Shown here piece by piece: positions 502 to 61,066 of a stretch of DNA of 64,000 nt. The notes under the pieces were generated by a model. It was given only the letters and a program-made list of their open reading frames with translations, had not been told where the DNA came from and searched no databases. The translations under genes were made by a program, and so were the position numbers. The stretch is from Candidatus Parcubacteria bacterium (lineage in GTDB: Bacteria > Patescibacteriota > Minisyncoccia > UBA6257 > JAGOQP01): assembly GCA_025999395.1 (NCBI GenBank), contig AP024682.1, forward strand, positions 301,638-365,637, written 5' to 3'. Position 1 is the stretch's first letter. Each line of letters begins with the position of its first letter.

Positions 502-3126
502 ATGTCTTTATTCGACAGAGTCTTTTCTCCTTTAAAAAAATATCGCTCTTGGGTAAAGAAGATAAATGATTTAGAAAAAGAGGTTAGTTTCCTTTCTGAT
601 GAAGAATTAAAGAAGAAAAGTCTTGATTTAAAAGAAAAAATTCAACTTAAAAAAGTTTCTTTAGAAGAAGCTCTTCCTCAAGCTTTTGCTTTGGTAAGAG
701 AAGCAGCTAAAAGAACTCTTGGTCAAAGGCATTATGATGTTCAATTAATGGGAGGGATTGCTTTGTTTGAGGGAAAAATTGCTGAAATGGCAACGGGTGA
801 GGGAAAAACTTTAGCGGCCACCGCTCCCGCTTATCTTTATGGACTAACAGGGAAAGGAGTTCATGTTGTAACGGTCAATGATTATTTGGCTCAAAGAGAC
901 GCGGTTTGGATGGGGCAAATTTATAATTTTTTAGGGCTAACGGTTGGCTGTTTGAGTCATGACGCGGCTTATCTTTACGATGCAGACTATAAAAATCAGC
1001 AACTAGACAAAGAAAGAGACACCAAAGGAAGTTTTGAAGTAGTTCATGAATTTTTGCGACCCGTTTCTCGAAAAGAAGCTTATTTAGCAGATGTTCTTTA
1101 CGGAACCAATCATGAATTTGGTTTTGACTATTTGAGAGATAATTTAGCTTATCACACCGCCGATCAAGTTCAGCGGCGCCTCAGCCAAGAAGAAAAGCCC
1201 TTCTTTTACGCCATTATTGATGAAGTAGATAGCATTCTTATCGATGAAGCGCGTACTCCCTTGATTATTTCTGCTCCTGATACCCAAGCGGCTGATTACT
1301 ACAAGGTTTTTGCCAAAGTAGTTAGTTTTTTGAAGAAAGATGAAGATTATTTGGTGGATGAGAAAAATCATTTTGTTCAAATCACTGAGGCCGGCATTTC
1401 GAAGGTGGAGAAAATGCTGAATCTAAAAGATCTTTACGGTCCTCAAAATATTAAACTAGTTCATTACTTAGAGGAATCTTTAAAGGCTAAAGCGCTTTTT
1501 TTTAGGGATAAACATTACATTGTCAAAAATGGGGAGGTGGTGATAGTTGATGAATTTACTGGTCGGCTAATGTATGGCCGACGCTATTCGGGTGGTCTTC
1601 ATCAAGCCCTAGAGGCAAAAGAAGGAGTAAAAATTCAGGAAGAGTCAAAAACCTTTGCTCAAATCACTATTCAAAACTACTTTAGGCTTTATCAAAAGAT
1701 TGCCGGAATGACTGGAACGGCTCTTACTTCTAAAGAGGAATTTGAGAAAGTTTATGGTTTAGAAGTAGTAGTAATTCCTCCTAATAAACCTTTAATAAGA
1801 AAAGATCATCCCGATTTTATTTTCAAAACTAAAGAGATAAAGTATCGCCAAATAGTAGAAGAAGTAAAAAAGAGAGTTAAAAAAGGGCAGCCAGTTCTTG
1901 TGGGGACTACTTCAATTGAGGAAAACGAAACTCTTTCTTTATATTTTTCTCGAGCAGGGATTAAGCATCAAGTTTTGAATGCTAAGAATCACGAAAAGGA
2001 AGCTGAAATTATTGCTCAAGCGGGAAGAAAGGGAGCGGTGACTTTGGCTACCAATATGGCGGGAAGGGGAGTGGATATTATTTTAGGCGGCAACCCCCCT
2101 GATCCTAAAGAAGCTGAAGAAGTAAGGAAAGCAGGAGGATTGTTTGTATTGGGAACTAACCGTCACGAAGCTCGAAGAATTGACAATCAACTTCGCGGAC
2201 GAGCCGGCAGACAAGGAGATCCGGGAGAAACTCAATTTTTTCTTTCTTTGGAGGATGATTTATTAAGAATTTTTGGGGGAGAAAGAATTCAGCGGCTGAT
2301 GAGCAATTTTAATTTTCCAGAGGATCAGCCGATTCAATCCTCTTTAATTTCTAAAGTTGTTGATGAAGCCCAGAAAAAAGTAGAAGGGATTAATTTTGAT
2401 ATTCGTAAACATCTTTTTGAATTCGATACGGTTTTAAACAAGCAAAGACAAACTATTTATCGCCGTCGGCAGAATCTTTTAGAAAGAATAGAAAAAGGAG
2501 AAACAATTCAGATTGTAAAGGAGTTTATTGGAGATGTGCTGTTTAAAATAATTTCCGAAGAAGACTTTTCTTTTGAAACTAAAGAGGAAGATTTTTCTAA
2601 GGAGCCTCAAGAATCTCGGCCGGACCTTTCTCAAAAAGTTCAAAACTTTCTCTTGTCTTTGGGATTAGTTGAAGAAAAGGCCGAGCCTTTTAAAGAAGAT
2701 GAGTTAGAAAAAATAATAAGCGAAAAAATTTTTCCTGATTCTTTAGAAAAATCAATAGAAGCAAAAGTTTTGGCGGATAATCAGGCAGGATTAAAGATTT
2801 TATCGGCTTTGGATTTTCTCTGGATTGATCACTTAGAAAATTTAGAAGCGCTTTTAGAGGGAGTAAAAATTAGAGCTTATGGACAAAAAGATCCATTAGT
2901 AGAGTATAAAAGAGAAGCTTTTGAAATGTTTAAGGATTTGATTTTTAATTCGGAAATGATTGCTTTAACAAATATTTTTAAAAATGATAAAAAAGTAGAA
3001 GCAAACTTAAATAAAAAAGATTTTTCATTAAACAAAGATATCAACAAAAATTTTAAAAAAGTAGGTAGAAATGAATTATGCCCTTGTGGCTCCGGTAAAA
3101 AATTTAAAAAGTGTCACGGAACATAG
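502..3126 (+). CDS. secA: Preprotein translocase ATPase SecA
   Basis: 874 aa. Has the Walker A motif MATGEGKTL, DEAD-like motor motifs, and a C-terminal zinc-binding tail CPCGSGKKFKKCHG typical of SecA. Confidence 0.95.
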   Translation: MSLFDRVFSPLKKYRSWVKKINDLEKEVSFLSDEELKKKSLDLKEKIQLKKVSLEEALPQAFALVREAAKRTLGQRHYDVQLMGGIALFEGKIAEMATGEGKTLAATAPAYLYGLTGKGVHVVTVNDYLAQRDAVWMGQIYNFLGLTVGCLSHDAAYLYDADYKNQQLDKERDTKGSFEVVHEFLRPVSRKEAYLADVLYGTNHEFGFDYLRDNLAYHTADQVQRRLSQEEKPFFYAIIDEVDSILIDEARTPLIISAPDTQAADYYKVFAKVVSFLKKDEDYLVDEKNHFVQITEAGISKVEKMLNLKDLYGPQNIKLVHYLEESLKAKALFFRDKHYIVKNGEVVIVDEFTGRLMYGRRYSGGLHQALEAKEGVKIQEESKTFAQITIQNYFRLYQKIAGMTGTALTSKEEFEKVYGLEVVVIPPNKPLIRKDHPDFIFKTKEIKYRQIVEEVKKRVKKGQPVLVGTTSIEENETLSLYFSRAGIKHQVLNAKNHEKEAEIIAQAGRKGAVTLATNMAGRGVDIILGGNPPDPKEAEEVRKAGGLFVLGTNRHEARRIDNQLRGRAGRQGDPGETQFFLSLEDDLLRIFGGERIQRLMSNFNFPEDQPIQSSLISKVVDEAQKKVEGINFDIRKHLFEFDTVLNKQRQTIYRRRQNLLERIEKGETIQIVKEFIGDVLFKIISEEDFSFETKEEDFSKEPQESRPDLSQKVQNFLLSLGLVEEKAEPFKEDELEKIISEKIFPDSLEKSIEAKVLADNQAGLKILSALDFLWIDHLENLEALLEGVKIRAYGQKDPLVEYKREAFEMFKDLIFNSEMIALTNIFKNDKKVEANLNKKDFSLNKDINKNFKKVGRNELCPCGSGKKFKKCHGT

Positions 3127-3227
3127 GGATAAAGCAATAATGAAAATTATAATAGTTGGATATTCAAAATTTAGAAAAAATTACCGTTTTTAAATTTAAA
3201 AGGTTTTGTTAATTTTAATTAATCTTT

Positions 3228-4031
3228 TTATGGCTTAATAACACATTCTCCTGTTCCAGAAGCAATCGAACCACAAAGACGATTAGTGGGTGAGATTATT
3301 AAGGAGGAATATAAAGTTCCTGTAGCATTTACACAGGTTCCAGTAGGTGTTCTATAACTTTGGTAAGAACGATTAGCCATTAAAGAAGAGCCAGAATCAT
3401 TATAAACACATGAAGGATAATTATTATAATCTCTTCCCCCTCTCCAGAAAGCTTTTTGATTATGATTTAAAGAAAGACAGTAATAGTAAGAAGGAACTCC
3501 AGCATTATTTCCTGTATAACCTTCTGTTGCGCTAAGTGTTGGCATAGTATAGAAGCCGTTATTTGGAAGATAAACAGTTCCAGAACAATTAGTTGAGGAA
3601 TAATACCATGTAGAAGAAGCTCTTCCTTGAAAGGTGCTGCAATCTCCGGTTATCATATGCTTTTTTTGAAAGTTATTGATATATATTGTGCTATCACAAA
3701 AATTATCTGTTCCGGAGTCATAAAGAAGAACATTATTGGTTGGCATATAATCATATGAATTTCTTTCTCCGAAAATAACAATGGCGATTGTATTTAAAGT
3801 TTGTCCTCCAGCATTAATTCTGCCCCAAAAATCATAAATTCCAAGTACTCCTCCTATTCCTCCAAACTTTCCTACTAGCGTTGTTCCATCTGATTGGTAT
3901 ACATTTAATCGTTTATCGTAAATTGTATAAGAGAAAACTAGATGAGAAAAGAAAATAAAGGTTAAAATAAGGAAAAATAAAAAAATATATCTGATTTTTT
4001 TATTATCTATAAACTTTTTTTTAAATAACAT
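3228..4031 (-). CDS. Secreted/membrane-anchored Cys-rich protein; paralog of the C-terminal domain of the adjacent pilin-like protein
   Basis: Has an N-terminal hydrophobic anchor. Residues about 40-267 align with the C-terminal ~250 aa of ORF 4040..5965, for example LNVYQSDG, KHMITGDCSTFQGRASSTWYYS, YCLSLNHNQKAFWRGG and the ending NRLCGSIASGTGECVIKP. Confidence 0.6.
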   Translation of the reverse strand: MLFKKKFIDNKKIRYIFLFFLILTFIFFSHLVFSYTIYDKRLNVYQSDGTTLVGKFGGIGGVLGIYDFWGRINAGGQTLNTIAIVIFGERNSYDYMPTNNVLLYDSGTDNFCDSTIYINNFQKKHMITGDCSTFQGRASSTWYYSSTNCSGTVYLPNNGFYTMPTLSATEGYTGNNAGVPSYYYCLSLNHNQKAFWRGGRDYNNYPSCVYNDSGSSLMANRSYQSYRTPTGTCVNATGTLYSSLIISPTNRLCGSIASGTGECVIKP

Positions 4032-4039
4032 AAAATATT

Positions 4040-5965
4040 TTAAGGCTTAATAACACACTCTCCTGTGCCAGAAGCAATTGAGCCACAAAGGCGATTAGTG
4101 GGCGAGATTATTATTCCATTATATAAAGTTCCGGTAGCATTAATACAGGTTCCAGTGGGGGTTCTATAACTTTGATAAGAACGATTAGCCATTAAAGAAC
4201 CTCCATAATCGTTATAGAAACATGAAGGTGTATCTTGATAACGATATTCTCCTGGTGGATTACAGTATTTAAGATATGTACTATAACCGCCTCTCCAGAA
4301 AGCTTTTTGATTATGATTTAAAGAAAGACAGTATAAATAGTAGTTGTTTGCGTTATTGTTTATATCTGTACAAACATCATCTCCCCACCCTTCCCAGCCA
4401 CTATTAACTGCCATTTGGAATAAACTATTAATATAAACTGAACCGGTACAATTTGTTCCTGAATAATACCATGTAGAAGAAGCTCTTCCTTGAAAAGTGC
4501 TACAATCTCCGGTTATCATATGCTTTATTTGATTAGTTGATGAGGAAAGGTAGACGGTAAAATCACAAAGATTATCTACTACTCCACTGTAAATAAGAGC
4601 TTGATTAGTTGGCATCCCATTAGAAGAATCCCTTGTTGAATAAACAGCTCGGGCTTGTTGAGAGTTTCCAGCAGCAGTAAAATCATAAAGAATTGGTCTT
4701 CCTAGATCAATTAACTGTCCCACCAAATTTAATCCATCTGACTGATAAACATTTAAAATTCCTTCACCTACTGAATTATCAACATATCCTTTTGTTGCTA
4801 CATCGCTACTGGCAGTTGGAGAGGCGACATTGGTGATTTTGTAAGTAGGAGTTGCTCCCGAAAGCTTGATGTTGCCTGCTACCTCTAGCTTTTCTCCCGG
4901 TGTTCCTGTTCCAATGCCGACATTACCCGAGGCATCAATTTTTATTCCTCTTGCTGAACTACTCCATTGGCCGATCATAAGACTACCAGTATTTGATCCT
5001 CCCGATCCATAATAAATAAGACCAATATCTCCTGCTGATGACATTGGATTATATCCACCACTACCCAATTCAGCAATTGAAAATATTCTTGCCCCCCCAT
5101 CATCTCTTAAAAGAAGACCAATTTCGTTGGCATTTGAAGTATAAATATCTAATTTTGTTCCTCCTGCTGGAGTTGCTACTCCAATCCCAACATTGCCACT
5201 AACAATTAATCCGTTGGAGGGGGCGGTGTTAACTCCAGCATAACTTCCAATGGCTACTCCGCCGGCAACATCAAGTTTGTTTAAAAGAGTAGTCACACCA
5301 ATACCAACATTTCCAGAGAAGGAAGCATTCTTCCAGCGGTTCGAGGTTCCCACAGAGTAGGTATTGTCAACTCCGGGAATTAAATCAGAATCAAAGGTGG
5401 CTGCAGAAACACGAGAAACAGCAGAGCGCAAAGAACGGCGAATAGTGCTTCCCTCCACTTTATTAGCGGCTGACATTGCTAAATCGATTTGAACAATATC
5501 TTTGCCGGGGTATTGGGTAAGTTTCTTAAATTCAAGAGAATCAATAACAACTTTATCGCTGGTAATGGATTGAGGAGTACCACTGGCTCCTTCTTTTACA
5601 TAAATTCTGCCATTTTCCAAATAAATAGTAGTGGGATCAACGGCGCTATCTTTCATTCTTAGAGTTAAAGAGGTGGTTGGTGTGCCGGGAGTTATATCTA
5701 CCAAACTTGAGTTTCTAATAAGCCTTTGAATAGTTTGCATAGCAAAATTAAGCTGTCCTGAAATTTCTACTTGAGCGCTTTGTTCGGTTTGCACTTTGGT
5801 GACGCTTAAGAAAATGCCGGTAGCAACTGAGGCAACAATTCCCAAAATTCCTACATAAATAAGCATCTCCATCAAGGAAAATCCCTGATTGTTTTTGAAA
5901 AAACAAGAAGCAGAGGTTTTTTTCATGTTTTTAAAACCTTCTTTTTTAATTACATTGGGAGACAC
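4040..5965 (-). CDS. Large type IV pilin-like protein with Gly-rich fibre-like repeats and a Cys-rich C-terminal (putative adhesin/lectin-like) domain
   Basis: Has a class III signal: MKKTSASCFFKNNQG then FSLMEMLIYVGILGIVA, with Glu at +5 (the prepilin peptidase motif). The likely true start is the Met at about 5926. Repeated GNVGIGV...KLDV units resemble tail-fibre/glycoprotein repeats. The C-terminal domain is duplicated in 3228..4031. Confidence 0.65.
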   Translation of the reverse strand: MSPNVIKKEGFKNMKKTSASCFFKNNQGFSLMEMLIYVGILGIVASVATGIFLSVTKVQTEQSAQVEISGQLNFAMQTIQRLIRNSSLVDITPGTPTTSLTLRMKDSAVDPTTIYLENGRIYVKEGASGTPQSITSDKVVIDSLEFKKLTQYPGKDIVQIDLAMSAANKVEGSTIRRSLRSAVSRVSAATFDSDLIPGVDNTYSVGTSNRWKNASFSGNVGIGVTTLLNKLDVAGGVAIGSYAGVNTAPSNGLIVSGNVGIGVATPAGGTKLDIYTSNANEIGLLLRDDGGARIFSIAELGSGGYNPMSSAGDIGLIYYGSGGSNTGSLMIGQWSSSARGIKIDASGNVGIGTGTPGEKLEVAGNIKLSGATPTYKITNVASPTASSDVATKGYVDNSVGEGILNVYQSDGLNLVGQLIDLGRPILYDFTAAGNSQQARAVYSTRDSSNGMPTNQALIYSGVVDNLCDFTVYLSSSTNQIKHMITGDCSTFQGRASSTWYYSGTNCTGSVYINSLFQMAVNSGWEGWGDDVCTDINNNANNYYLYCLSLNHNQKAFWRGGYSTYLKYCNPPGEYRYQDTPSCFYNDYGGSLMANRSYQSYRTPTGTCINATGTLYNGIIISPTNRLCGSIASGTGECVIKP

Positions 5966-6039
5966 AACTTTTCTTTATTAATTTTACCAGCTTTAAAAAT
6001 AAAAACAAAGCAAGGTGTGGATAAACAAGAGAGAAGGAA

Positions 6040-6723
6040 TCAGAAGGATTTTAAAAGAATTACCTTGCCAATTATTTCTTTTTTGTCTATTAATCCAAAG
6101 CGAGTGGAATCCAGAGAACCTTCAATTTTATTTCCTAAAATTAAGTAGGTATTTTCTGGAATCACTGGATAATCTCTCAGATAAAGCTTTAAGATGGCTG
6201 ATCTTTCTTTAGGAATAAAATAAGGGATTTGTTGAGCGTTAGTTAAAATTTGATCGTTAACAAGGATTTGATAACCATCCTCTTCTTCTTTTAGTTGCCA
6301 TTTATCGTTGGGAAGAGCTTTTACAATTTTAATTAACCTTTGACCGTTAGGGTGCTGGTAAATAATTATATCGTTTCTTTGGACTGGGTGACATTGGTAA
6401 TAATTTTCAAGAACTTTTATTTTTTCTCCGCTTTCTACAATTCCTGACATTGAATCTCCTATTACTTCTTCTAAAAGAGTTTTAATTTGGCAATCTTTTT
6501 CTAAGGGGGCCTGATTTTTCTCTTCTGAATTGAAATTTTCTTTGGCGACTGAGGCAGATTTATTTTCGACTAATTTATCGGAGTTATCTTGGAAAGAAAT
6601 TTTATTGTCAGAAAAGGCGTCATCTTTTTGGCTAACTTTTAGAGAGAGGAAAAATAAGCCAAATAAGGCAATTAAAATCAAGGTCAAACTTCCTACTAAA
6701 ATCAGAATTGTCTTCAATTTCAT
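6040..6723 (-). CDS. lepB: Signal peptidase I
   Basis: Has an N-terminal TM segment. Shows the S26 boxes: GDSM (Ser box), IKIVKALPNDK (Lys box) and GNKIEGSLDSTRFG (E box, GDNxxxSxDSR-like). Confidence 0.8.
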   Translation of the reverse strand: MKLKTILILVGSLTLILIALFGLFFLSLKVSQKDDAFSDNKISFQDNSDKLVENKSASVAKENFNSEEKNQAPLEKDCQIKTLLEEVIGDSMSGIVESGEKIKVLENYYQCHPVQRNDIIIYQHPNGQRLIKIVKALPNDKWQLKEEEDGYQILVNDQILTNAQQIPYFIPKERSAILKLYLRDYPVIPENTYLILGNKIEGSLDSTRFGLIDKKEIIGKVILLKSF

Positions 6724-6803
6724 ATTTATTTTATAAGCTTGCGATAAGCGATTATTGTCATTATACTCTGAAAAAGAAGAGAGAGGTAGTTTTTATTTAT
6801 CTT

Positions 6804-8681
6804 ATGGATATTCGAAATTTTTGTATTATTGCTCATATCGATCACGGTAAGTCCACTTTAGCTGATCGCTTGTTAGAAATCACAAACACAGTTGATAAAA
6901 GACAGATGAAGTCTCAGTATTTAGATCAGTTGGAGCTAGAAAGAGAAAGAGGGATTACTATAAAGATGGCTCCCGTAAGAATGAAATATTTTTTTCGGGG
7001 GCAGGAGTATTGTTTAAATTTGATAGATACCCCTGGTCATCCTGATTTTGGATATGAGGTTTCTCGGGCTTTAGCGGCAGTAGAAGGAGCAATCCTTTTG
7101 GTTGATGCTACTCAAGGAATTCAAGCACAGACTCTTTCTAACTTTTATGCAGCTCAAAAAGCAGGCTTAAAAATTATTGGAGCGGTAAATAAGATTGATT
7201 TGGGAAGTTTTGATGTAGAAAAAGCGGTCAAAGAAACCGCTTCTCTTTTAGGAGTAGATGAAAGCGAAATTTCAAGAATTTCAGCTAAAACAGGAGCGGG
7301 AGTAAAGGAATTATTGGAAAGATTAATCGAAGAAGTTCCTCCCCCCCAGATTCAAAATCATCAGCAAATTTCTCGAGCTTTAATTTTCGATTCCTTTTAT
7401 GATAATCATAAAGGGATTGTTGCTACGGTAAGAGTTTTTGAGGGAAGTTTTAAAGCTAATCAGGAAGTTTTTTTGATCGCCGCTAAGGAAAAATTTAAGA
7501 TCAAGGAGGTGGGTTATTTTACTCCTCATCTTTCAGCTACCGACTCTTTGTCGGAGGGAGAAATTGGTTATTTAGTAACTGGTATAAGAGATCCTCATCA
7601 AGTAAAAATTGGAGATACCGTTATTTCGCTGAAAGCGAAATTGCAGACAAATAAAATTGGTGTTAGTGCTAATCAACATTTTGATTCACATCAGGCTGCA
7701 CTCTGGGCCCTGCCAGGTTATCGAGAACCCAAGCCAGTAGTTTTTGTTTCTTTTTATCCTGATAATCCTGACGAATACGAAAACTTAAAGAAGTCTTTGG
7801 AACGCCTTAAACTAAATGATTCTTCTTTTACTTTTGAACCGGACGCTAACGAAGTTTTGGGAAGGGGATTTAAAGGAGGATTTTTGGGGAAGCTTCATTT
7901 TGAAATTGTTCTCCAACGTTTGGAAAGAGAATTTGGAGTGAAAACAGTTACTTCTTTTCCTTCAGTGGCTTATAAAGTTAAATTACCCCCAGCTTCTTTA
8001 AAAAAGGATAATCTATCTAGGTTAGAAAAAGATGAAGAAGGTTTTTTGATTATTCGCAATCCCAAAGACTTGCCCGATAACTTTTTAGAGATTTGGGAGC
8101 CGATGATTAGGGTAGAAATTATTGCTCCTCATCATTTATTAGGAAGTCTTCTTCAATTAAAAGAAGCTTTTCGTTGGCAAGAAGTAAATACTAAGTTGAT
8201 AGGAGAAAAGGTTATTATCGAAACAAAAATGCCTTTGGCAGAATTAATTTCTGACTTCGATGATAGGTTAAAGTCGGTTTCGGGTGGGTTTGCTTCTTTT
8301 AGTTATCAAGAAGAAGGTTACCAAAAATCAGATCTGGCGAAATTAGAGATTCTGGTGGCTGGTGAAGTGGTCCCCGGGCTTTCTCGAATTTTACCTAAAG
8401 AAACTCTGGAAAAAGAAGCGCGAAAAATGGTTTTGCGTCTTAAAGAAATACTTCCTCGTCAGCAATTTAGCCAAGCTCTTCAAGCAAAAGCACAAGGAAG
8501 AATTATTGCTCGAGAAACTATCCCCGCTTTAAAAAAAGATGTGACTGGTTATCTTTACGGAGGTGATCGAACTCGGAAGATGAAGCTTTGGAAAAAACAA
8601 AAGGAAGGGAAAAAGAAGCTTTTGTCTTTGGCGCGGGTAAGAATTTCTCCTCAAGACTTTAAAAAGATTTTGTCTAAATAG
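6804..8681 (+). CDS. lepA: Translation elongation factor 4 (LepA)
   Basis: Starts NFCIIAHIDHGKSTLADRLL (G1 motif) and continues with DTPGHPDF. About 625 aa. The annotated ORF starts at 6708, but the conserved start is the Met at 6804. Sits in the classic lepA/lepB neighbourhood. Confidence 0.9.
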   Translation: MDIRNFCIIAHIDHGKSTLADRLLEITNTVDKRQMKSQYLDQLELERERGITIKMAPVRMKYFFRGQEYCLNLIDTPGHPDFGYEVSRALAAVEGAILLVDATQGIQAQTLSNFYAAQKAGLKIIGAVNKIDLGSFDVEKAVKETASLLGVDESEISRISAKTGAGVKELLERLIEEVPPPQIQNHQQISRALIFDSFYDNHKGIVATVRVFEGSFKANQEVFLIAAKEKFKIKEVGYFTPHLSATDSLSEGEIGYLVTGIRDPHQVKIGDTVISLKAKLQTNKIGVSANQHFDSHQAALWALPGYREPKPVVFVSFYPDNPDEYENLKKSLERLKLNDSSFTFEPDANEVLGRGFKGGFLGKLHFEIVLQRLEREFGVKTVTSFPSVAYKVKLPPASLKKDNLSRLEKDEEGFLIIRNPKDLPDNFLEIWEPMIRVEIIAPHHLLGSLLQLKEAFRWQEVNTKLIGEKVIIETKMPLAELISDFDDRLKSVSGGFASFSYQEEGYQKSDLAKLEILVAGEVVPGLSRILPKETLEKEARKMVLRLKEILPRQQFSQALQAKAQGRIIARETIPALKKDVTGYLYGGDRTRKMKLWKKQKEGKKKLLSLARVRISPQDFKKILSK

Positions 8682-9821: not shown

Positions 9822-10988
9822 ATGAAGTTTATAAGTCAAATTAAAAAAGAAACAATTAAGGGGAAAACAGCTCTTCTTCTCTTGGATTTAAATATCGAAA
9901 AAAGCGAATGGAAAAACTCTCTCCGGCTGGAAAGAGCAATTAGAGCTATTGATTTTCTTTTAAAAAAAGAAGCTCGAGTAGTGGTTTTGTCTTTTAAAGG
10001 AAGGCCGGATTTGAAGTTGGTTAAAAATAAAGATTATCGCGCTTCCTTTAGTCTTTTTTCAATTGCTCAAGAGATCTCGAAAAGATTAAGAACTTCTTTT
10101 GATTTTGTTGATGATTTTAATTTTAAAAATTGGAAGGAAAAAGTTAAAAAGTCATCTCGGTCATTAATTTTTTTGGAGAATTTAAGATTTTTTAAAGAAG
10201 AAAGAGAAAATTCCTTATCTTTTGGAAAACTTTTAGCGAGTTTGGGAGATTTTTATGTAAATGATGCTTTCTCAGTTTGTCATCGCCAACAAGCTTCGAT
10301 AACGAGAATTCCCAAATTTGTGCCTGCTTATGGAGGTATGGGAATGGAGATAGAACTAAATTCTTTAAAAAGAATTTTTCAAAATCCTCTAAGGCCCGTA
10401 ACTTTGATTGTTGGGGGAGCTAAAGTAGATGATAAGATGAGGGTTATAGAAAATCTTTATCCCAAAGTTGATTCTATTCTTTGTGGGGGAGGAGTGGCCA
10501 ATACTTTGCTGTTTTTTCAAAATCTTCCCGTGGGTTCTTCTTTGGTGGAAAAGGATTTATCTTTCAGAGATTTTTATTTTCGGTTTAAAGAGAAAATAGT
10601 TCTTCCGGTTGATTTTCTTTGGGAAAGGGGAGCAATTTTTGATATTGGTCCCAAAACGATAAAGAAATTTTCTTCTATTATTGATGACTCAAAAACAATT
10701 ATTTGGAGTGGACCGATGGGATTTTTTGAAAAGAAAAATTTTGCTGCTGGGACAAAGGCTTTGGTAAAAAAGATTTTGAAAAGCAAAGCTTTTTGTGTAA
10801 TTGGCGGAGAGCAAACCACCTCTGCTTTTTTAAAGTTTTCAAAAACTGCTTCTAAAAAGATTTCTCGAAATCCTTTTTATTTTAGAAAAAATATCTTTTT
10901 ATCCAGTGGGGGAGGAGCAATGCTTTACTATTTATCATCAGAAAAACTTCCGGGTTTAGTGGCTTTAGAAAATTCTTCTCGCCGTTAG
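9822..10988 (+). CDS. pgk: Phosphoglycerate kinase
   Basis: 388 aa. Has the GGAKVDDK hinge motif and SGPMGFFE near the C-terminus, in a PGK-like arrangement. Confidence 0.85.
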   Translation: MKFISQIKKETIKGKTALLLLDLNIEKSEWKNSLRLERAIRAIDFLLKKEARVVVLSFKGRPDLKLVKNKDYRASFSLFSIAQEISKRLRTSFDFVDDFNFKNWKEKVKKSSRSLIFLENLRFFKEERENSLSFGKLLASLGDFYVNDAFSVCHRQQASITRIPKFVPAYGGMGMEIELNSLKRIFQNPLRPVTLIVGGAKVDDKMRVIENLYPKVDSILCGGGVANTLLFFQNLPVGSSLVEKDLSFRDFYFRFKEKIVLPVDFLWERGAIFDIGPKTIKKFSSIIDDSKTIIWSGPMGFFEKKNFAAGTKALVKKILKSKAFCVIGGEQTTSAFLKFSKTASKKISRNPFYFRKNIFLSSGGGAMLYYLSSEKLPGLVALENSSRR

Positions 10989-11058
10989 AGTTTTTAGTTT
11001 TTATTTAAGTTCTTATTTAAGTTCTCAATTTTAAAATAAATTTCAAAAATTTAAATCA

Positions 11059-11499
11059 ATGAAAAATTTTTCTTCTGATAAAAAAATCGTAATTTATACC
11101 GATGGTGGCTCGCGGGGGAATCCGGGCCCTTCCGCTTTAGGGGTTTATTTTAAAGATTTCGAAAAGAAGTATTCTTTTTATTTGGGAGAAGGAACTAATA
11201 ATCAAGCAGAGTACAAGGCAATTATATTTGCTTTAAAAAAGGCTAAGCAATTAATAGGAAAAGAAAAAGCCAAAAAAACTTTGGTAGAAATCAGAGCTGA
11301 TAGTCAACTGGTGGTTAATCAACTCAATGGTGTTTTTAAGTTAAAGGAAAAGGAACTCTGGCCTCTTTTCATAGAAATTTGGAATTTAAAGCAAGATTTT
11401 TTGGGTGTTGAATTCAAATTTGTACCTCGTCAGGAAAATAAAGTGGCTGATTTTTTGGTTAATCAGGCTCTAAACATTGAAGCTCAGAAATTATTTTAA
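11059..11499 (+). CDS. rnhA: Ribonuclease HI
   Basis: 146 aa. Has IYTDGGSRGNPGPSALG (the DEDD catalytic Asp/Glu region) and a C-terminal DFLVNQA. Confidence 0.85.
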   Translation: MKNFSSDKKIVIYTDGGSRGNPGPSALGVYFKDFEKKYSFYLGEGTNNQAEYKAIIFALKKAKQLIGKEKAKKTLVEIRADSQLVVNQLNGVFKLKEKELWPLFIEIWNLKQDFLGVEFKFVPRQENKVADFLVNQALNIEAQKLF

Positions 11500-11543: not shown

Positions 11544-11554
11544 TTTAAAAGGTA

Positions 11555-11915
11555 GAGATAAGCGGGTAGTTGCTCTAATCCTTTTGGATTAGAGAGGAAA
11601 GTCCGGACACCCTACCTTGATTTTTCAAGGTACAAACGCCTCCGCTAACAGCGGACCGCCGAAAGGCGAGAGGTGCGAACAGAGACGTCGAAAACAGCAA
11701 TGTTTTCGACATCCAAAGATTTTTCTTTGGATGAGTCCTGATGGTAACATCAGGGGTGAAACGGCTAAATCCTGGCGGGGTGCAAGACCGTGCCTTTTCT
11801 GCAGTTTTTGCAGAAAAGGAGAGTCGCTTGAGCCTGAGAGCAATCGATGGCCCAGATAAATAACTACCACTCTGATTTTTTCAGAGTACAGAATCCGGCT
11901 TACAGCTTATCTCTA
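11555..11915 (+). ncRNA. rnpB: RNase P RNA (bacterial type)
   Basis: Contains the universally conserved GAGGAAAGTCCGGAC (P4 5' strand) and ACAGAATCCGGCTTA (P4 3' strand). A P1 helix closes the molecule (agagataagc at the 5' end pairs with gcttatctct at the 3' end). Confidence 0.9.
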
Positions 11916-11978
11916 CTTTTTTTATTTTTAAAAGTTGTTTGTTGGTGATTTTTGCTTTATAGTGTATTTTAGAAAAAT

Positions 11979-37840: not shown

Positions 37841-38839
37841 TTAAAATCTATTTTTATTTTTTCTCATGGAAAGACCAGCTCCTTTTAAGTTTTCAGGAAT
37901 TTTTCCTACAAAAGCATAGCCATGGCGAGCATAATGAGTGGGGACGATACAATCAAAAGTATCCACTCCTTCTTTAACGGCTAAAAGGATATCTTCTAAA
38001 TGACCAATTCCTAAGAGATGGCGAGGTTTGTTTGAGGGAAGTTCGTTGATGGTAACTTTAAGAATTGCCCTCATTGATTTTTTATCAATCCCAAATTCTC
38101 CGCCGATTCCAAAGCCATCAAAATCTAGCGAACCAATAAAGTTAGCGCTTGTTTTTCTCAAGTCTTTATATTTTCCTCCCTGAACAATACCAAAAAGAGC
38201 TTGGTTGGTTTTTTTGGTTTTTAAAGCAAATTTTTGCCCAAGTGTGAGTTCTCTCTAAGGCTTTTTGATTGTAATAATAATCCGCCAAGGGAGAAGGACA
38301 TTCATCAAAAGCAAAAATAATATCGGCGCCTAGTTTTTCTTGAATTCTTATTGATTCTTGAGGGCCAATGAAAATTTCTTTTCCATCTAAGGGTGATTGA
38401 AAATAAACTCCTTGATTTGTAATTTTAATTTTTTTGAGGTTTGTGAAAAACAGTGATTTTTTGGAGAGAAGATTTATGAGAGGGAATTTTGATTTTTTAA
38501 GCACCTTTCCCGTTTCATAATCTCTTCCAAAACCAAAACTAAAAACTTGAAAGCCAGCAGAATCAGTCATTAAAGGTTTGGGCCAGTTCATAAATTTGTG
38601 CAGCCCGCCGTTTTTTTTTGATAATTTCTTCTCCCGGCTTTAGATGAAGATGAAAAGTGTTAGCAATAAGAATTTGAGTACCTGTTTCTCGGACTCTTAA
38701 GCTGTCTAAGGTTTTTACTGTGGCTTGAGTGGCTACGGGAACAAAAGCTGGAGTTTCTACTTCTCCGTGAGGAGTTTTAATAACTCCTAATCGAGCAGAA
38801 GAATTTTTTGACTTTTTTTAGTACTCGAAAGCTAATCAT
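37841..38839 (-). pseudogene. tgt: Queuine tRNA-ribosyltransferase Tgt, split by at least two frameshifts/stops
   Basis: N-terminal segment (about 38839-38610) RLGVIKTPHGEVETPAFVPVATQATVK. Middle ORF MTDSAGFQVFS...FAFDECP. C-terminal ORF HLLGIGHLEDILLAVKEGVDTFDCIVPT. The three pieces lie in different frames, with a poly-A run at the first break. Confidence 0.7.
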
Positions 38840-52428: not shown

Positions 52429-52441
52429 GTTGGAAAAAGAA

Positions 52442-52540: not shown

Positions 52541-53834
52541 AAATTCCCGGATTTGATAATTGTCGCCCTGCGACAATAGAATTTTGGCTTGTTTCTGCCT
52601 CAAAAATCATTTCTTTCATCGGTTCGAGCCAATTATTTCCCGATTGTTCAAAATCTCTGATTTTCTGCTCAATATCCAGTTTTTCGTTGAGCAGTTTTTG
52701 TTTCTTGGCTTGGTATTCTCCAAGTGTCAAAGCTCCTGCCGGCGATATAGAGGTCTAACAGTTTTTCAATTTTCTGCTCAACTCTCTGCCTTTTGCTCGC
52801 TGGAGATTTTGAACAATAATTTCGCTTTCTCTTTTCAGCTTGCTCTTTTTCTTTGTCTAACTCCAAAATCATATTTTCCGCCCACTCATCAGGCAAAGAA
52901 ACCTTTTTGAATAAAATCTCTTCATCTGCTCAACAAGGTTTTCTTCCCTTAAATACCTTTCATCGCATTTTTGCTTTTTCTTGGTGCACCGGTAGTAGTT
53001 ATGCCCTTTTTGCTTTTCAGCGGTTATCATACAGCCGCAATTTCCGCAACGCATAAAGCCGGAAAAAGCAAATTCATGCTTTCTTTTTCTCTTTTTCTTG
53101 CCTCGGTTATTCATTACTTGCTGGACAGAATCAAAAAGTTTCTTGGAAATAATTGGCTCGTGAGCTTCCCTGATAAACTTCTCCGTTAAACTTAAAAACT
53201 CCGTAGTAGAAATGATTTTTGAGCATTCGCTGGACACAGGAAACAGAGAGCGGTTTGTTGCGGTAGCTTGTTATTCCGCTGTCCGCCAAAAACTGCTTTA
53301 TGGCTTTTAGGGTATAGTCGCCGGTGGCGTAAAGCTCAAACGCTTTTCTGATAAACGGTGCTTTGCCTTTGTCCAAATCTATTTCTTTTGTCATGGTGAT
53401 TATTAAGATAGCCAAGCGGAGCAAAGCCTGGCCAAATTCCTTTTCGCAGTTTTTAGCGGTGTCCTCGCTTGATGTTTTCTGAAAGGTTGTCAACATAATA
53501 CTTGCTTTGCCCAAAAGCGATGGAGAGCATAAATTTTCCCTGCGGCGTGTTTTCAAACCTGAAAGTCGGAAATTTCAAATCTAAAATTTTTCCTGTGTCC
53601 AGCAGATAAATGATTTTCCCGCCGTCAACAGAATTTCTTGCTAACCTGTCCGGGTGCCAAGCCAAAATTCCGCTGGCTTCGCCGAGCGCAAATCCGGTCT
53701 AACATTTCTCCGAAAACTTTTCGGCCAGGTTCCTTGGCGGCAAATTCTTTTAGCTCAGCAAGCTGAGCTTCAATAGACAAAACCTGCTTTTCTTCTGAAT
53801 CTGTTGATTTTCTGCAATAGATAAAGTATTTCAT
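52482..53834 (-). pseudogene. Large serine recombinase, decayed copy (multiple frameshifts)
   Basis: Five overlapping minus-strand ORF fragments align in order to the intact recombinase at 55945..57537. Matching segments include MKYFIYCRKSTDSEEKQ, AWHPDRLARNSVDGG...FGQSKYY..NLSENIKRGHR, HEPII.KKLFD.VQ and MRCGNCGC...GHNYYRCTK. Confidence 0.8.
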
Positions 53835-54429: not shown

Positions 54430-54430
54430 T

Positions 54431-55944: not shown

Positions 55945-57537
55945 TCAGGGCGAGGCGGGCGGAAGGGGGGTTCGGGGGGAATTCCGCCCGCCGAGCCAAT
56001 CGGTCGCGAAATCGGTTCGGATTTTTTCAAATGCACACCGCCAATATTCAATTTCAGAGTTTTTGAAGGTTCTTGCCTCGCCCTCGCTTCGCTCGGGCTC
56101 GGCAAAAGCAACGATTTTATACGGATTTTTGAAATCAAAAAACAATTTCTGCCCGCTCAAAAGAAAGTTCGAACCAATCTTTTTTAGAAAATCCCGGCTT
56201 TGCTCAGGATTTTCTTGCAAAGTGACAATTTCGGCTTGTTTTACGGAGTTTATGAATTTGGCGGCGAGTTCGAACCGATTATTGCCTTTTTGCTCAAAAG
56301 CCTTCAGTTTGTCTTTCAAAAGTTGTTTTTGATTGACGAGTTTGTTTTTGGCCTCTCTGTATTCATCCAAAGACAAAGCGTTTTCAAGATAAGCGTTCAT
56401 CAGCTTGTCTAACTTTTCGTCAATTGCTTTTATTTCGTTTTCTATCTTTTGAGCAAAAAAGCACGATGATTGGGCTTTTTGTTCTTTTTCTTTTTCAAGT
56501 TCTTTTATCATCCAATCAGCCCAATCATCGGGCAAAGAAACTTTTTGAATCTCCTTTTTGATTTGCTCGGCGATTATTTCTTCGCGAACATATCTTTGAG
56601 AACAAGGGATTTTCCTTTTGGTGCAACGCAAATAATTGTGTCCTTTCTGTGTCTCGGTGGTGATAAAGCAACCGCATTTTCCGCAACGGAACATTCCTCT
56701 GTAAATGTATGGCTTTAATTCTCTTGTCTTTGGTTTGCTTTTTTGTCTCATCACTTCCTGAACTTGGTCAAAAAGTTTCTTTGCGATAATCGGTTCGTGC
56801 TTTCCTTCGTAATATTCGCCGTTGTATCTCATCACTCCGTAGTAAAAAGGATTTTGAAGAAGGTATTGATAATTTGAAACAGAAAGTAATTTACCTTTTC
56901 TTCCTCTCAATCCCAGATTGTTGACAATCTTTCGGATCTCTTTAAGAGCGTATTTGCCGGTGGCGTAAAGCTTAAAGGCTTTTTTGATAAGAGGAGCTTT
57001 TTCTTTGTCTATATAGATTTGTTTTGTCTTGGGGTCGTTGAAGTAGCCAAGAGGCGCCATTTGAGGCCATAGACCTTGTTTTAGTTTTTGGCGATGTCCC
57101 CGCTTTATATTTTCCGAAAGATTGTCAATATAGTATTTTGACTGCCCAAAAGCGATAGACAACATAAACTTTCCTTGAGGCGTGTTTTCAAACCAAAAAG
57201 TCGGGAATTTTAGCTCTTTGATTACTCCGGTATCAACAAGGTAAATTATTTGTCCGCCGTCAACAGAATTACGAGCGAGACGGTCAGGATGCCAAGCCAA
57301 AATCCCTTCTGCTTCGCCCGCTTCAATTCTCTTTAGCATTTCTGCAAAAACAGGTCTTCCCGGCTTCTTGGCAGTTTGTTTTTCAACGAGAACATCAACG
57401 ATTTCCAGATTTTCTTTTTTCGCTAATTCTTTGAGTTCCGCTATTTGGTCCTGAATACTCCTTACTTGCCGATCTTCTGAATCGGTTGATTTTCGGGCGT
57501 AGATGAAAAATTTTCTTGTTTTGTTGTCTTTTTTCAT
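55945..57537 (-). CDS. Large serine recombinase (resolvase domain, recombinase domain, zinc ribbon and coiled coil)
   Basis: The probable start is MKKDNKTRKFFIYARKSTDSEDRQ, with the catalytic Ser in the YARKST motif. Has WHPDRLARN and the zinc ribbon CGKCGC...GHNYLRCTKRKIPC. The ORF track extends the N-terminus to 57609 and the C-terminus into the flanking repeat. The true C-terminus probably lies before about 56190. Confidence 0.8.
   Translation of the reverse strand: MKKDNKTRKFFIYARKSTDSEDRQVRSIQDQIAELKELAKKENLEIVDVLVEKQTAKKPGRPVFAEMLKRIEAGEAEGILAWHPDRLARNSVDGGQIIYLVDTGVIKELKFPTFWFENTPQGKFMLSIAFGQSKYYIDNLSENIKRGHRQKLKQGLWPQMAPLGYFNDPKTKQIYIDKEKAPLIKKAFKLYATGKYALKEIRKIVNNLGLRGRKGKLLSVSNYQYLLQNPFYYGVMRYNGEYYEGKHEPIIAKKLFDQVQEVMRQKSKPKTRELKPYIYRGMFRCGKCGCFITTETQKGHNYLRCTKRKIPCSQRYVREEIIAEQIKKEIQKVSLPDDWADWMIKELEKEKEQKAQSSCFFAQKIENEIKAIDEKLDKLMNAYLENALSLDEYREAKNKLVNQKQLLKDKLKAFEQKGNNRFELAAKFINSVKQAEIVTLQENPEQSRDFLKKIGSNFLLSGQKLFFDFKNPYKIVAFAEPERSEGEARTFKNSEIEYWRCAFEKIRTDFATDWLGGRNSPRTPLPPASP
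56032..56190. repeat. Imperfect terminal inverted repeat, left, of the recombinase element
   Basis: Matches the reverse complement of 57596-57808 over about 125 bp (caccgccaatattcaatttcagagtttttgaaggttcttgcctcgccctcgcttcgctcgggctcggca...). Both inner ends read accaatcttttttag. Confidence 0.6.
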
Positions 57538-57595
57538 AATCGCTTTTGGACAGTTAGTCCCGCTTCGCGGGACAAATTGCCGCTTTGCGTTCCGC

Positions 57596-57808
57596 CAAAG
57601 GCGGAACAAAAAAGATTGGTTAACCCCGCCCTTTTAACAGGAAGGGCGGGGTGTTCGCCTTCGGCGAACCGAACCTCCAAATTCTGGAGCAAAAATTGTT
57701 TTTTGATTTCAAAAATCCCTATAAAATCGTGGTTTCTGCCGAGCCCGAGCGAAGCGAGGGCGAGGCAAGAACCTTCAAAAACTCTGAAATTGAATATTGG
57801 CGGTGTCT
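57596..57808. repeat. Imperfect terminal inverted repeat, right, of the recombinase element
   Basis: See the partner at 56032-56190. It carries an extra insertion of about 50 bp with two GC-rich hairpins. Confidence 0.6.
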
Positions 57809-58451: not shown

Positions 58452-59426
58452 ATGGGTAAGTATGAAAGAGAACAAATCGAAGAGGCTGAGAAAATAATTG
58501 TTAAGATTATTAATTCTCAGAAGGTGTCCGATTTAGATAAACAAAATCGGTGGTTTAAACATGCGATCGCTATTGCTGAAAGAATTAAAAAGGATTTTCC
58601 CAATATTAAAAAAGCACAACATTTAGGTAATCGTTATGATAATACGGGAGATATATTATTAATTACCTCTGATAAAAGAGAAATTTTTATTGAAGTTAAA
58701 ATGAGCGACACAAGATTAGGTGTGGGGACTAAAGCAAATGTCAGTCAAGATGCGCTTACAGAAAATTATCTTTTTGTGGGCAAAGTTAAAAGTTGGAGTA
58801 AATTTCGCAAGGAGAAAAAACATAATGAGTGGGTTGATAGTTATTTAGACCTTTTTACTAGATATCCAAAAAAGATTTTAAATATCTCAAATTCCATAAT
58901 TAGAAGAGAGGAGAAAGCAAGGTATTTAAGAGGTTTAAAACAAAAAGGAAGTAGAAAAGCCAAAGAAATTCTCGATAAAATTCACGAGAGAGATAAAAAA
59001 GAAAAAATAGAATATTTGGTTTATCTTAGCAAACAACCGCAAAGAGAAGAAATGATTAAAAGATTTTTTATTTTAATTACATTAGGTATCCATAAAAAAG
59101 AAGAATTACAGGCTCTAATAAAAAAAGATAATTTTTTTCAAGAAATTCAAGATCTTTTGGTGTATTATGGGAATTCTTACAATGATAAAATTATTGTAAG
59201 GCAAGAAAACGCAGGTGAGAAAATTAAAAAAGTTCTCGAAGAGTTTTCAGGTTTTAAAATTATCTTTCCTTCCGGAACTACCCACTGTAAATTAGTAGGA
59301 ATAAAGGGAAAGAAAAATATACCTTTATTACAAATAGTTTTACATTGGAAAAATATTGCTCAAGGAATTAAAACTCCGTGCCTTAATATTTTTGATCTAA
59401 CTCCAAAATTTATTAATCCTTATTAA
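58452..59426 (+). CDS. Putative type II restriction endonuclease (PD-(D/E)xK)
   Basis: GDILLITSDKREIFIEVK gives a D...E-x-K catalytic core. It is convergent with the MTase gene, overlapping it by 4 bp. Confidence 0.5.
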   Translation: MGKYEREQIEEAEKIIVKIINSQKVSDLDKQNRWFKHAIAIAERIKKDFPNIKKAQHLGNRYDNTGDILLITSDKREIFIEVKMSDTRLGVGTKANVSQDALTENYLFVGKVKSWSKFRKEKKHNEWVDSYLDLFTRYPKKILNISNSIIRREEKARYLRGLKQKGSRKAKEILDKIHERDKKEKIEYLVYLSKQPQREEMIKRFFILITLGIHKKEELQALIKKDNFFQEIQDLLVYYGNSYNDKIIVRQENAGEKIKKVLEEFSGFKIIFPSGTTHCKLVGIKGKKNIPLLQIVLHWKNIAQGIKTPCLNIFDLTPKFINPY

Positions 59427-61066
59427 TTTGGGTCAATTGGGAATAATTTCTCTAGCTCAGTTTTAGAGATCTGCGTATTTCCTGTAATACTTCTTACCAC
59501 TTTCAATTTCTCTTCCGAGGAAAGCTGTTTAGCAATATCCTTAAGAGTTAAGTTTGTTTTTGGTAAATTTTTTCCGAAATCCATCTTAAGTTGTTCCTGT
59601 TTAGAGGGAGGAAAAATAACATTGACATGGTTTTCAGCAATAAACTTCATTCCCGAAGGGATAACAGCTGCTTTTAGTGTCGCTGTTTTCACTGAACCTG
59701 TGATTCTATTTACAACAATAGCAGGGCCAATATCAAAATCTTTTCTTTTTACATATTGAGGTTTTGTTTTATCTATAATTGGAAATTTTAGTCCTGTTGG
59801 AGTTATATTATGGGCCCATATTAAAGGGATTCCTTCTTCCGGGTTGTTTGTCAATAAATGCTTATTTTGGTTCCAGACTAATCTGCCAGTTTTTACCTCA
59901 TATCCGAGATCATATAGTGTTAATTTATTTTCGAAGGCTTTTTCTAGAAATTTTGGATTTTCGCTAAATATTAAAATTCCATTTTTTTTGAATAAATAGT
60001 TTCCCTTGTTTCTACCTTTTTTAAGGATAATTAGCATTGTTGATTGTAGCGCCCCGTGGAATATTTTAGGGTCATCTAGAATATGTAAATATTCAATATT
60101 GGAATTCTCTACAATAAATTTTCTTAGTTTTAAAAAGTATGCTCCGTTATTCATAGAAGGGGGAACAACATAAGCTAAATATCCTCCTTCTTTTAACCAT
60201 TTTAATCCCTGACAAATGAACAGGCTAAATATGTTTAATCTACCGTTTATAATACTCCCGAATTTTTTTCTTATATTTTCTGGAGGAGTAAATTCAAAAT
60301 AAGGCGGATTACCAATTACAAAGTCATATTTACCATAATCTTCGTTTAAAAGAGCATCTAGCTGTTTGAGTTTTGCTTCAGGAACTACTTCTTTAGCGAT
60401 CTTTACTAGTTTTTTGTCTATATCCCATCCATAAAGTTGAGGGTTTTTGAAATATTTTTTTGCTGTGATTAAAAATTCTCCTGTTCCACAAGCAGGATCT
60501 AGTATTTTTGGGTTTTTAATGTTGGTTGGTAATTTACTAAGGAGTGCTTCTCTTATTGATCTTGGGGTAAAATATTGCCCTAAAGATTTTCTATATTCTA
60601 TATCTGTTTCTTCCATATACCTAATTGTAGCCTCGGTGAATTCCTCTTTTTCTTTTATTTTTTCTTTTAACTCGCCAAAACTTCTAATTACACTTATTAC
60701 TTTTCCTTGAATTATTAATTCTTTTGTAAAAATCGGTTTTATTTTTGGATTTGCTGGTTGAAGCCGGAAACCATTTTTTTCTCTATAAATCTTTTTGAGT
60801 GTAACTTCATTATCATTTATTAGAGCCACTACCGTTTCTCCATTTTCAGCAATTGGTTGTTTCCTAATTATTACGATATCTCCATCGTAAATTCCTTCGT
60901 CAATCATGCTATCTCCTTGAACCCTTAAAGCGTAATGTTCGCCTGATTTAGATAATTGTGATTTGGGAACCTCAATCATTTCAGGATCTTCTATTGCTTC
61001 AATTGGTTGACCAGCAGCAATAGTGCCAAGTAGTGGAATTTCTACTGTCTCTTTCTTTTCTCCCAC
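59423..61066 (-). CDS. Fusion protein: LexA-like S24 autopeptidase domain plus N6-adenine DNA methyltransferase (gamma-class, TaqI/Eco57I-like)
   Basis: The N-terminal 130 aa read IPLLGTIAAGQP (the Ala-Gly cleavage site), GDSM (Ser nucleophile) and VTLKK (Lys). The C-terminal MTase has QYFTPRSI, ILDPACGTGEFL (motif I) and GNPPYF (motif IV). Confidence 0.8.
   Translation of the reverse strand: MGEKKETVEIPLLGTIAAGQPIEAIEDPEMIEVPKSQLSKSGEHYALRVQGDSMIDEGIYDGDIVIIRKQPIAENGETVVALINDNEVTLKKIYREKNGFRLQPANPKIKPIFTKELIIQGKVISVIRSFGELKEKIKEKEEFTEATIRYMEETDIEYRKSLGQYFTPRSIREALLSKLPTNIKNPKILDPACGTGEFLITAKKYFKNPQLYGWDIDKKLVKIAKEVVPEAKLKQLDALLNEDYGKYDFVIGNPPYFEFTPPENIRKKFGSIINGRLNIFSLFICQGLKWLKEGGYLAYVVPPSMNNGAYFLKLRKFIVENSNIEYLHILDDPKIFHGALQSTMLIILKKGRNKGNYLFKKNGILIFSENPKFLEKAFENKLTLYDLGYEVKTGRLVWNQNKHLLTNNPEEGIPLIWAHNITPTGLKFPIIDKTKPQYVKRKDFDIGPAIVVNRITGSVKTATLKAAVIPSGMKFIAENHVNVIFPPSKQEQLKMDFGKNLPKTNLTLKDIAKQLSSEEKLKVVRSITGNTQISKTELEKLFPIDPN

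Follow-up and report, generated by a model that had tools for sequence, protein, structure and literature searches.

How do bacteria of the candidate phyla radiation (CPR; Patescibacteria) recognise their hosts? The main candidates for this task are type IV pili. The question is raised in a concrete form by a 64,000-nt stretch of DNA from a Candidatus Parcubacteria bacterium (assembly GCA_025999395.1, contig AP024682.1, positions 301,638 to 365,637 of the forward strand), an organism that is probably host-dependent. In this stretch, hereafter called the window, two adjacent genes, A and B, encode a pilin-type protein that ends in a Cys-rich domain and a second copy of the same domain. A first-pass annotation, made from the letters of the sequence and a list of its open reading frames (ORFs), had read the pair as a cassette system for varying a receptor-binding tip. 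What kind of protein is A, how does its tip vary, and what is B for? The explanation that we favour, and regard as fairly probable, is that A would be a modular pilin adhesin whose tip is exchanged between strains, and that B would be a secreted paralogue of this tip.

Pilin module, stalk and terminal domain of protein A

Both ORFs were found on the minus strand at the positions first assigned to them (Table 1). The N-terminus of A reads KNNQG/FSLMEMLIYVGILGIVASV, where the slash follows the Gly that ends a short hydrophilic leader; about 20 hydrophobic residues come next, with Glu at position +5. The claim that A carries a genuine class III pilin signal is therefore borne out by the motif itself and by two family models, both matched above their cut-offs: PF07963 with 26.7 bits (cut-off 21.2) and TIGR02532 with 17.7 (cut-off 16.3). 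No other class III motif occurs in any frame of the window. An alignment of 25 homologues shows no variation at F29, L31, E33 and Y37 and a conservation of at least 90% at G28; the pilin module is the most conserved portion of the protein. The motif lies within the first 80 residues in 59 of the 120 homologue matches of A. Sequence matches between A and the pilins in PDB are confined to the alpha1-N helix. Close homologues (P0003 and P0005) begin with MKKTSAS at the equivalent of M14 and, for this reason, the true start of gene A is probably the ATG at 5926 (M14), which would leave a leader of 14 residues.

The Gly-rich fibre repeats attributed to A were also confirmed, as three GNVGIG-type repeats located near residues 218, 257 and 347. 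When the profile built from the 25 homologues was compared with the sequences in PDB, these repeats matched fibres of the mosaic adhesive trimeric (MAT) adhesins of Bdellovibrio: Bd2133 (8ond) gave an E-value of 5e-14, 8ol4 and 8oml gave 5e-8 and 9e-8, respectively, and 8on4 and 8ojn were matched as well. A phage tail fibre and tailspikes were also among the matches, more weakly than the MAT fibres. The sequence of A used singly against PDB gave a weak match to 8oml (E 0.046). Judging from these profile matches, the stalk of A is homologous to the phage-tail-fibre-like fibres of MAT adhesins. The stalk ends in the motif ATKxYVD, which precedes the C-terminal part in 38 of the 120 homologues, and what follows this junction is diverse: 37 tips of at least 60 residues fall into 20 sequence clusters. 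The Pfam domains precomputed for the homologues of A include DUF1554, LamG, C-type lectin, C1q, Kelch, dockerin, collar and S74.

The C-terminal domain of A proved to be Cys-rich, as proposed, with about 240 residues and 10 Cys. Nothing in Pfam, NCBIfam or PHROGs matched the tip or gene B, and no member of the tip family defined below has a Pfam match. When B or the tip alignment was used as the query, word-indexed protein searches gave almost nothing; the family was found when a profile was run exhaustively against 1.84 billion representatives, with 31 proteins returned at E ≤1e-3 and 7 at E ≤1e-10. The canonical domain has 130–150 residues and about 8 Cys, starts with LNVYKSDGTTLLGKY and ends with CGxGxCxIK(P). 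The tips of A and B are the largest versions in the family (226–238 residues) and have lineage-specific insertions in common. The domain was observed in two settings. It forms the end of other pilin-fibre proteins (P0003, P0004, P0009, P0011, P0015 and P0122), and it follows a plain signal peptide, directly or via a short linker, in three unrelated metagenomic proteins: P0134 (153 residues, with the start MKLLLLILLEIASAQG/LKVY), P0126 (183 residues) and P0124 (235 residues). The even number of Cys residues in an exported domain fits the formation of disulfides; MdbA-like disulfide oxidoreductases are widespread and enriched in CPR bacteria (PMC6744442). To judge from sequence and architecture, the tip represents a rare, previously undescribed family of extracellular domains of about 130–240 residues, with pilin-borne and free secreted forms.

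The structure of the domain was predicted with AlphaFold2. The tip of B, modelled with 21 sequences, gave an all-beta fold with a predicted local distance difference test score (pLDDT) of 76 and a predicted template modelling score of 0.76; the tip of A with 6 sequences reached a pLDDT of only 33. A Foldseek search with the tip model gave no significant neighbour, the best E-values being 0.67 in PDB and 0.38 in BFVD. The earlier guess that the tip might be lectin-like was thus not confirmed.

Table 1. Features of genes A and B and of their surroundings, in window coordinates
Feature	Position	Strand	Remarks
Gene A	4040..5965	minus	641 aa; exact NCBI protein KatS3mg098_276
Leader peptide of A, up to Gly28 (predicted)	5882..5965	minus	from sequence; class III motif at 5884; starts of P0003 and P0005
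Pilin module of A, residues 29 to ~195	5381..5881	minus	hydrophobic alpha1-N helix with Glu5, then conserved globular part
Fibre stalk of A, residues ~196-388	4802..5380	minus	three GNVGIG..P..KL.V repeats; profile match to Bdellovibrio MAT fibres
Stalk-tip junction VATKGYVD, residues 389-396	4778..4801	minus	motif in homologues; homology of locus L001 ends at 4778
Tip domain of A, residues 404-641, 10 Cys	4043..4756	minus	57% identical to B; rare family; no Pfam match
Gene B	3228..4031	minus	267 aa; exact NCBI protein KatS3mg098_275
N-terminus of B, possible Sec signal peptide or signal anchor	3924..4031	minus	from sequence; layout as in P0134, P0126 and P0124
Tip domain of B, residues 42-267, 8 Cys	3231..3908	minus	alignment to A; AlphaFold2 model predicted all-beta
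lepB, signal peptidase I	6040..6723	minus	PF10502 E 1.9e-15; TIGR02227 E 7e-19; upstream neighbour of A
lepA	6708..8681		beyond lepB; 657 aa
secA	502..3126	plus	convergent downstream neighbour; 3' end inside exchanged tract
Exchanged tract	~2781..4850	no strand	last stalk repeat, tip of A, gene B, intergenic DNA, last ~115 codons of secA

Exchange of the tip between strains

The gene order lepA-lepB-pilin-secA is kept in nine recovered loci (numbered here with the prefix L), including those of lineages that are only 65–77% identical in DNA; the synteny of lepB, in particular, is kept in L001–L003, L006, L008, L011 and L013. Three of the loci come from strains very close to that of the window and carry other tips. 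In L001, with a flank identity of 98.97% over 9.2 kb, the pilin ends in a Gly-rich tip of 353 residues (P0002). In L003, where the flanks are 97.8% and 95.4% identical, the tip is a DUF1554 domain (P0005), and in L006, which is 99.2% identical in lepA and 94.4% in lepB and the stalk, it is a divergent Cys-rich domain (P0003). Together with the window, which has the tip of A and, in addition, gene B, these loci hold four different tips at one site among strains whose flanks are 94–99% identical.

The limits of the exchanged DNA were evident from the sliding identity of the window to L001 and L003. On the stalk side, identity is 100% down to about position 4851 and 74% at 4801–4850, and then homology is lost; in the BLAST comparison with the nearly identical L001 it stops at 4778, and neither the tip of A nor gene B has any homologous sequence in that locus. 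On the secA side, identity is 56–76% at 2981–3130, that is, in the last 150 nt or so of secA, rises to 82–86% at 2781–2980 and is exactly 100% from 2780 on. Such sharp steps indicate homologous recombination with a diverged donor. This result shows that, between strains, recombination of this kind with diverged donors has replaced a stretch of about 2 kb. Gene B lies inside this tract and, therefore, was imported together with the tip of A. The divergence between the two copies, with about 0.8 synonymous substitutions per site, is far older than the divergence of about 1% between the strains.

A B-like gene was found in none of the nine related loci. A search for further related loci with the 6-sequence tip alignment gave two already-known loci in the GTDB species genomes and none in the JGI metagenomes. 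The 35-mer common to A and B had no exact match in the JGI metagenomes either, and exact-protein look-ups of A and B gave no further contigs. The window itself holds no third copy of the tip that tblastn could detect, so the additional paralogues suggested by the first-pass annotation did not appear there; A and B were the only ones.

Other variable features were observed around the same site. In L006, the pilin gene is separated from what remains of secA by an IS200-type Y1 transposase and an NTPase gene (positions 4725-5992 of that locus), which adds to the evidence for a recombination hot spot at this site. In L003, two tandem genes of 89 codons each, without a Pfam match, are located on the opposite strand downstream of the DUF1554-tipped pilin gene (10493-11103); neither the window nor L001 has these two genes, which enlarge the variable repertoire of the tract. 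L002 comes from the metagenome-assembled genome (MAG) GCA_900175145.1. Its identity to the window is 98.4% through lepA (13456-7017) and falls to about 77% over lepB, the pilin stalk and secA (6984-4729 and 3120-1). This may reflect a much longer recombination tract or a chimeric MAG. The lepA gene is also not constant. In L002 (4786-7158) and L003 (4746-6914), it contains an inserted PDDEXK_3 domain and encodes 790 and 722 residues, respectively, as compared to 657 residues in the window and 625 in L001. The insert could be of homing-endonuclease or intein-like origin in a core gene.

Gene B and its relation to the tip of A

The ATG of gene B lies 8 nt past the stop codon of gene A, the two genes are co-oriented, and the 267 codons of B are intact. 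The N-terminus of B, MLFKKKFIDNKKIRYIFLFFLILTFIFFSHLVFSY, consists of a positively charged n-region and about 20 hydrophobic residues, followed by a possible signal-peptidase site (VFS/Y). The remainder is tip: residues 42-267 of B align with residues 404-641 of A with 57% identity (E 2e-83), the homology setting in precisely where the tip begins. The description of B as the tip domain behind a signal or anchor thus holds, and so does the homology of the two proteins, which is no mere low-complexity similarity. By our estimate, the probability that the 41 codons at the start of B would be open by chance in DNA of about 20% GC is roughly 0.02. We considered that the N-terminus of B might be a chance ORF, and rejected this because such an open frame is improbable and the same layout recurs in proteins found elsewhere. 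B lacks a Shine-Dalgarno sequence, and this is uninformative because the genome rarely uses them; in fact, a Shine-Dalgarno-like motif was observed upstream of only 9 of the 72 ORFs in the window. As for the many ORFs of the window that are listed with a TTG or GTG start, this codon is merely the first candidate start in each open frame.

It had also been observed that the two copies have identical ends and diverged middles. Both terminate in NRLCGSIASGTGECVIKP, and their middles have diverged with insertions and deletions. Over 225 aligned codons, synonymous divergence (dS) is 0.78 and non-synonymous divergence (dN) is 0.29. These averages conceal a strong heterogeneity: in the conserved blocks dS is 0.2–0.6 and dN is 0.05–0.07 (dN/dS of about 0.1–0.2), and the variable blocks are saturated and contain indels. 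The last 45 codons have a dS of 0.4–0.6, and the C-terminal 18 identical residues are encoded with 5 synonymous differences. The identical ends have therefore been kept by selection on the protein, and not by recent gene conversion. The longest runs of DNA identical in A and B measure 24, 35, 44 and 24 nt. Identity per block of 10 residues correlates with the confidence of the structural model (rho 0.54, p 0.008). The differences between A and B cluster in poorly modelled, insertion-prone segments, as expected of surface loops on a common scaffold.

These observations can be combined as follows. Gene A encodes a prepilin leader and pilin module, a MAT-like stalk, the ATKGYVD junction and a terminal domain predicted to be all-beta and rich in disulfides. 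Protein A would be exported by the Sec pathway, cleaved by prepilin peptidase and inserted into the pilus through its pilin module. By analogy with MAT fibres and with the tip pilin CofB, it is probably a minor pilin of low abundance that sits at the tip of the pilus, and it might form a trimer, as these do. In this position, the tip domain would be presented to bind a structure on the surface of the host cell. B would be an expressed receptor-binding protein, either secreted or held on the cell surface, with the same scaffold as A and different loops, rather than a silent donor cassette; one may speculate, for example, that it acts as a short-range adhesin complementing the long-range, pilus-borne A.

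Several points weigh against this explanation, whose weakest step is the exact role of B. B occurs in this genome only among the recovered loci and could be a recent, dispensable by-product. The dN/dS ratio of A versus B covers their whole history, including the time that the ancestor of B may have spent as a pilin tip. Both the trimerisation of A and its location at the pilus tip are proposed purely by analogy. The tip model, built from 21 sequences, is only moderately good (pLDDT 76), and no structural neighbour of it was found; for this reason the binding of a ligand by the tip is deduced from its position and from the architecture of the protein. When the ORF translations were read by eye, no genes for the pilus machinery or a prepilin peptidase were seen in the window. 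The machinery, including PilD, PilB, PilC and PilM-O, is widespread in CPR bacteria (PMC6744442).

Could B instead be an earlier tip, pushed downstream by a new tip that recombined into the pilin gene, and now decaying? Precedents are the orphan cdiA-CT and rhs-CT modules, which keep a conserved upstream piece and lack a translation start of their own. The locus demonstrably replaces tips, B is located immediately 3' of gene A and in this genome only among those recovered, and the homology of the two genes starts at the tip boundary. Nevertheless, none of the 267 codons of B has decayed, the upstream 41 codons are open in AT-rich DNA (the estimate of roughly 0.02 given above) and encode a canonical n-region and h-region, and no remnant of a stalk or of ATKGYVD is present upstream of its tip. 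Moreover, proteins composed of a signal and a tip exist independently elsewhere. The closest relative of A is B, and vice versa, and the two have lineage-specific insertions in common, which fits a local duplication followed by divergence better than a displaced foreign tip. We consider the displacement of an old tip rather unlikely.

A second alternative is the one closest to the first-pass annotation, namely that gene conversion within one lineage transfers variable blocks from B, the donor, into A, with the conserved blocks as anchors, in the manner of pilE and pilS; the receptor-binding or antigenic surface of A would be varied in this way. The DNA of A and B is indeed a mosaic, in which the four exact runs of 24–44 nt flank diverged, indel-rich blocks and dS varies from 0.2 in some blocks to saturation in others, and B lies directly downstream of A with homology from the exact first residue of the tip. 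The same comparison argues against a donor role, since the conserved blocks contain synonymous differences (5 in the last 18 identical codons, and a dS of 0.4–0.6 over the last 45) and the longest identical run, of 44 nt, gives no sign of recent conversion. Furthermore, B is equipped with a start codon and an export signal of its own, in a layout that recurs in P0134, P0126 and P0124; it is the single extra copy that tblastn detects in the window, and a B-like gene is found in none of the related loci. No G-quadruplex (G4) motif (G3+N1-7 x4) was found on either strand in 2900-6800. The variation that was actually observed between strains is the replacement of the whole tract, B included. The idea of a cassette system can thus be retained in one part, that the tip is variable and exchangeable, as the four tips between flanks of 94–99% identity and the 20 tip clusters indicate, and not in the other, that B recombines with A as its donor, which we judge to be unlikely.

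It is very improbable that B is an assembly artefact in which two tip alleles of a mixed population were joined in tandem: the source is a MAG and the locus is polymorphic in related populations, but a pilin tip allele would be expected after a stalk and B instead follows 123 nt of unique start and signal-peptide sequence, the two proteins differ by 43% with indels, far beyond strain-level bubbles, and the source contig measures 561,860 bp. A diversity-generating retroelement was also considered and rejected. The 184 mismatches between A and B are spread over A (52), C (48), G (36) and T (48) without an adenine bias, and no ORF resembling a reverse transcriptase was seen in the translations of the window.

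If A is, as we favour, an adhesin with an exchangeable tip and B its secreted paralogue, the locus offers a candidate determinant of host specificity, made of a pilin, a MAT-type fibre and an unannotated head that would be rich in disulfides. It is also a natural experiment, in which nearly identical strains carry four heads at one site within a defined recombination tract.

The rest of the window contains housekeeping genes and, at 52–63 kb, a region resembling an integrated element. A tRNA-Ser(gga) gene (52339-52428) adjoins a region of higher GC content (about 0.41; 52339-63212), in which a large serine recombinase is encoded on the minus strand (55945..57609) and a truncated copy, 75–78% identical to it, at 53131..53556. 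A perfect inverted repeat of 292 nt (57800-58091 and 62758-63049) surrounds a segment of 4.7 kb with small helix-turn-helix genes and a gene for a type IIG-like N6-methyltransferase/Eco57I protein with an S24/LexA-like N-terminus (59423..61066). As a whole, 52339-63212 resembles an integrated element, part of which may be invertible. The RNase P RNA, of bacterial class A, is encoded on the plus strand at 11554-11918 (148 bits) and explains two overlapping "ORFs" of 80 codons on opposite strands at 11617-11870. On the minus strand at 37841-38591, two adjacent ORFs of 106 and 141 codons both look by eye like pieces of a tRNA-guanine transglycosylase and could be a split or frameshifted gene.

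Comparison with known systems

The closest general class is that of the modular pilins, of which one survey lists more than 1,200 proteins in 264 architectures, many of the proteins being from CPR phyla and one architecture having a tail-fibre S74 domain (Raynaud et al. 2021, PMC8179133). Like PilB of S. sanguinis with its vWA module and PilC with its lectin module (PMC8179133), A has a class III signal, a pilin module and a grafted module. In A, the graft differs in being a long fibre stalk followed by a Cys-rich domain without a database signature, and the locus differs in that the tip is replaced at the level of strains and a separate, apparently secreted copy of it is encoded next to the pilin gene. 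A joins a pilin motif to a MAT-like stalk and to a tip that is autonomous, as it is also found without a pilin.

The MAT fibres of Bdellovibrio bacteriovorus are trimeric and surface-displayed and take part in prey recognition. One end is conserved and serves for retention, and the mosaic tips fold independently; members are Bd2133, Bd1334, Bd2439, Bd2734, Bd2740 and Bd3182 (Caulton et al. 2024, PMC10769870). The stalk repeats of A are, by profile match (8ond, E 5e-14), homologous to theirs, and in both systems a conserved end is joined through a fibre to a swappable tip. A conserved stalk with diversified tips was in fact observed here, with 20 clusters behind one junction and four tips among close strains, and the use proposed for A, the recognition of the surface of another bacterium, is the same as that of MAT fibres. 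The two differ at the retention end: MAT proteins have a Sec signal and a conserved beta-rich N-terminal domain of about 130 residues, and A has a type IV pilin, so that, judged from its class III prepilin signal and pilin module, A does not begin as a MAT protein does. The fold of the tip also differs, and the bearer of A is a CPR bacterium and not a predator. The MAT study itself mentions "tip swapping" and points to a conceivable interplay with type IV pili (PMC10769870). In the literature, we found no paper describing fusions of pilins with MAT fibres or with tail fibres in Patescibacteria; the locus connects the MAT adhesin family of Bdellovibrio to pilins.

The layout of A resembles also that of CofB of enterotoxigenic Escherichia coli and TcpB of V. 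cholerae, large minor pilins at the tips of type IVb pili in which a pilin domain is followed by a linker of beta-repeats and a C-terminal beta-sandwich. No sequence similarity between them and A was detected, and the type of linker and the fold of the tip differ. According to the summary given in PMC8179133, CofB is predicted to be a trimer at the pilus tip. Within the CPR, PilX2 of Nanosynbacter lyticus TM7x (Saccharibacteria) is an expanded minor pilin that contributes experimentally to host binding (PMC12206443). Like A, a putative minor pilin, it has an expanded C-terminal domain; unlike A, it has a beta-propeller and neither a canonical PilD signal nor a fibre stalk (PMC12206443).

The pair of genes, rather than A by itself, may be compared with pilE and pilS of Neisseria, where likewise a pilin gene has a partial copy nearby and conserved blocks are interspersed with variable ones. 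The pilS copies are multiple and silent, lack a start codon and the N-terminus, and are used in a conversion that starts at a G4 element. B, in contrast, is a single copy with a start and a signal sequence of its own; its conserved blocks have diverged at synonymous sites, and no G4 lies nearby.

A different comparison is offered by phages. In the S/U genes of Mu and the H/G genes of P2, the tip of the fibre and the next downstream gene are exchanged as a unit at a conserved junction of the fibre. The downstream genes encode Tfa chaperones, accessory proteins that are not homologous to the tip; B differs from them in being a paralogue of the tip with a putative export signal. A bolder proposal, which we put forward tentatively and with some doubt, is that host range in this lineage of Paceibacteria/Parcubacteria is set by a MAT-like trimeric fibre at the pilus tip, whose head is swapped together with the secreted paralogue B as one cassette at the lepB-secA hot spot. 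If true, this would connect fibre adhesins with type IV pili, a link whose possible interest was pointed out in the work on Bdellovibrio MAT fibres, and the locus would be a cellular counterpart of the swapping of receptor-binding proteins in phages.

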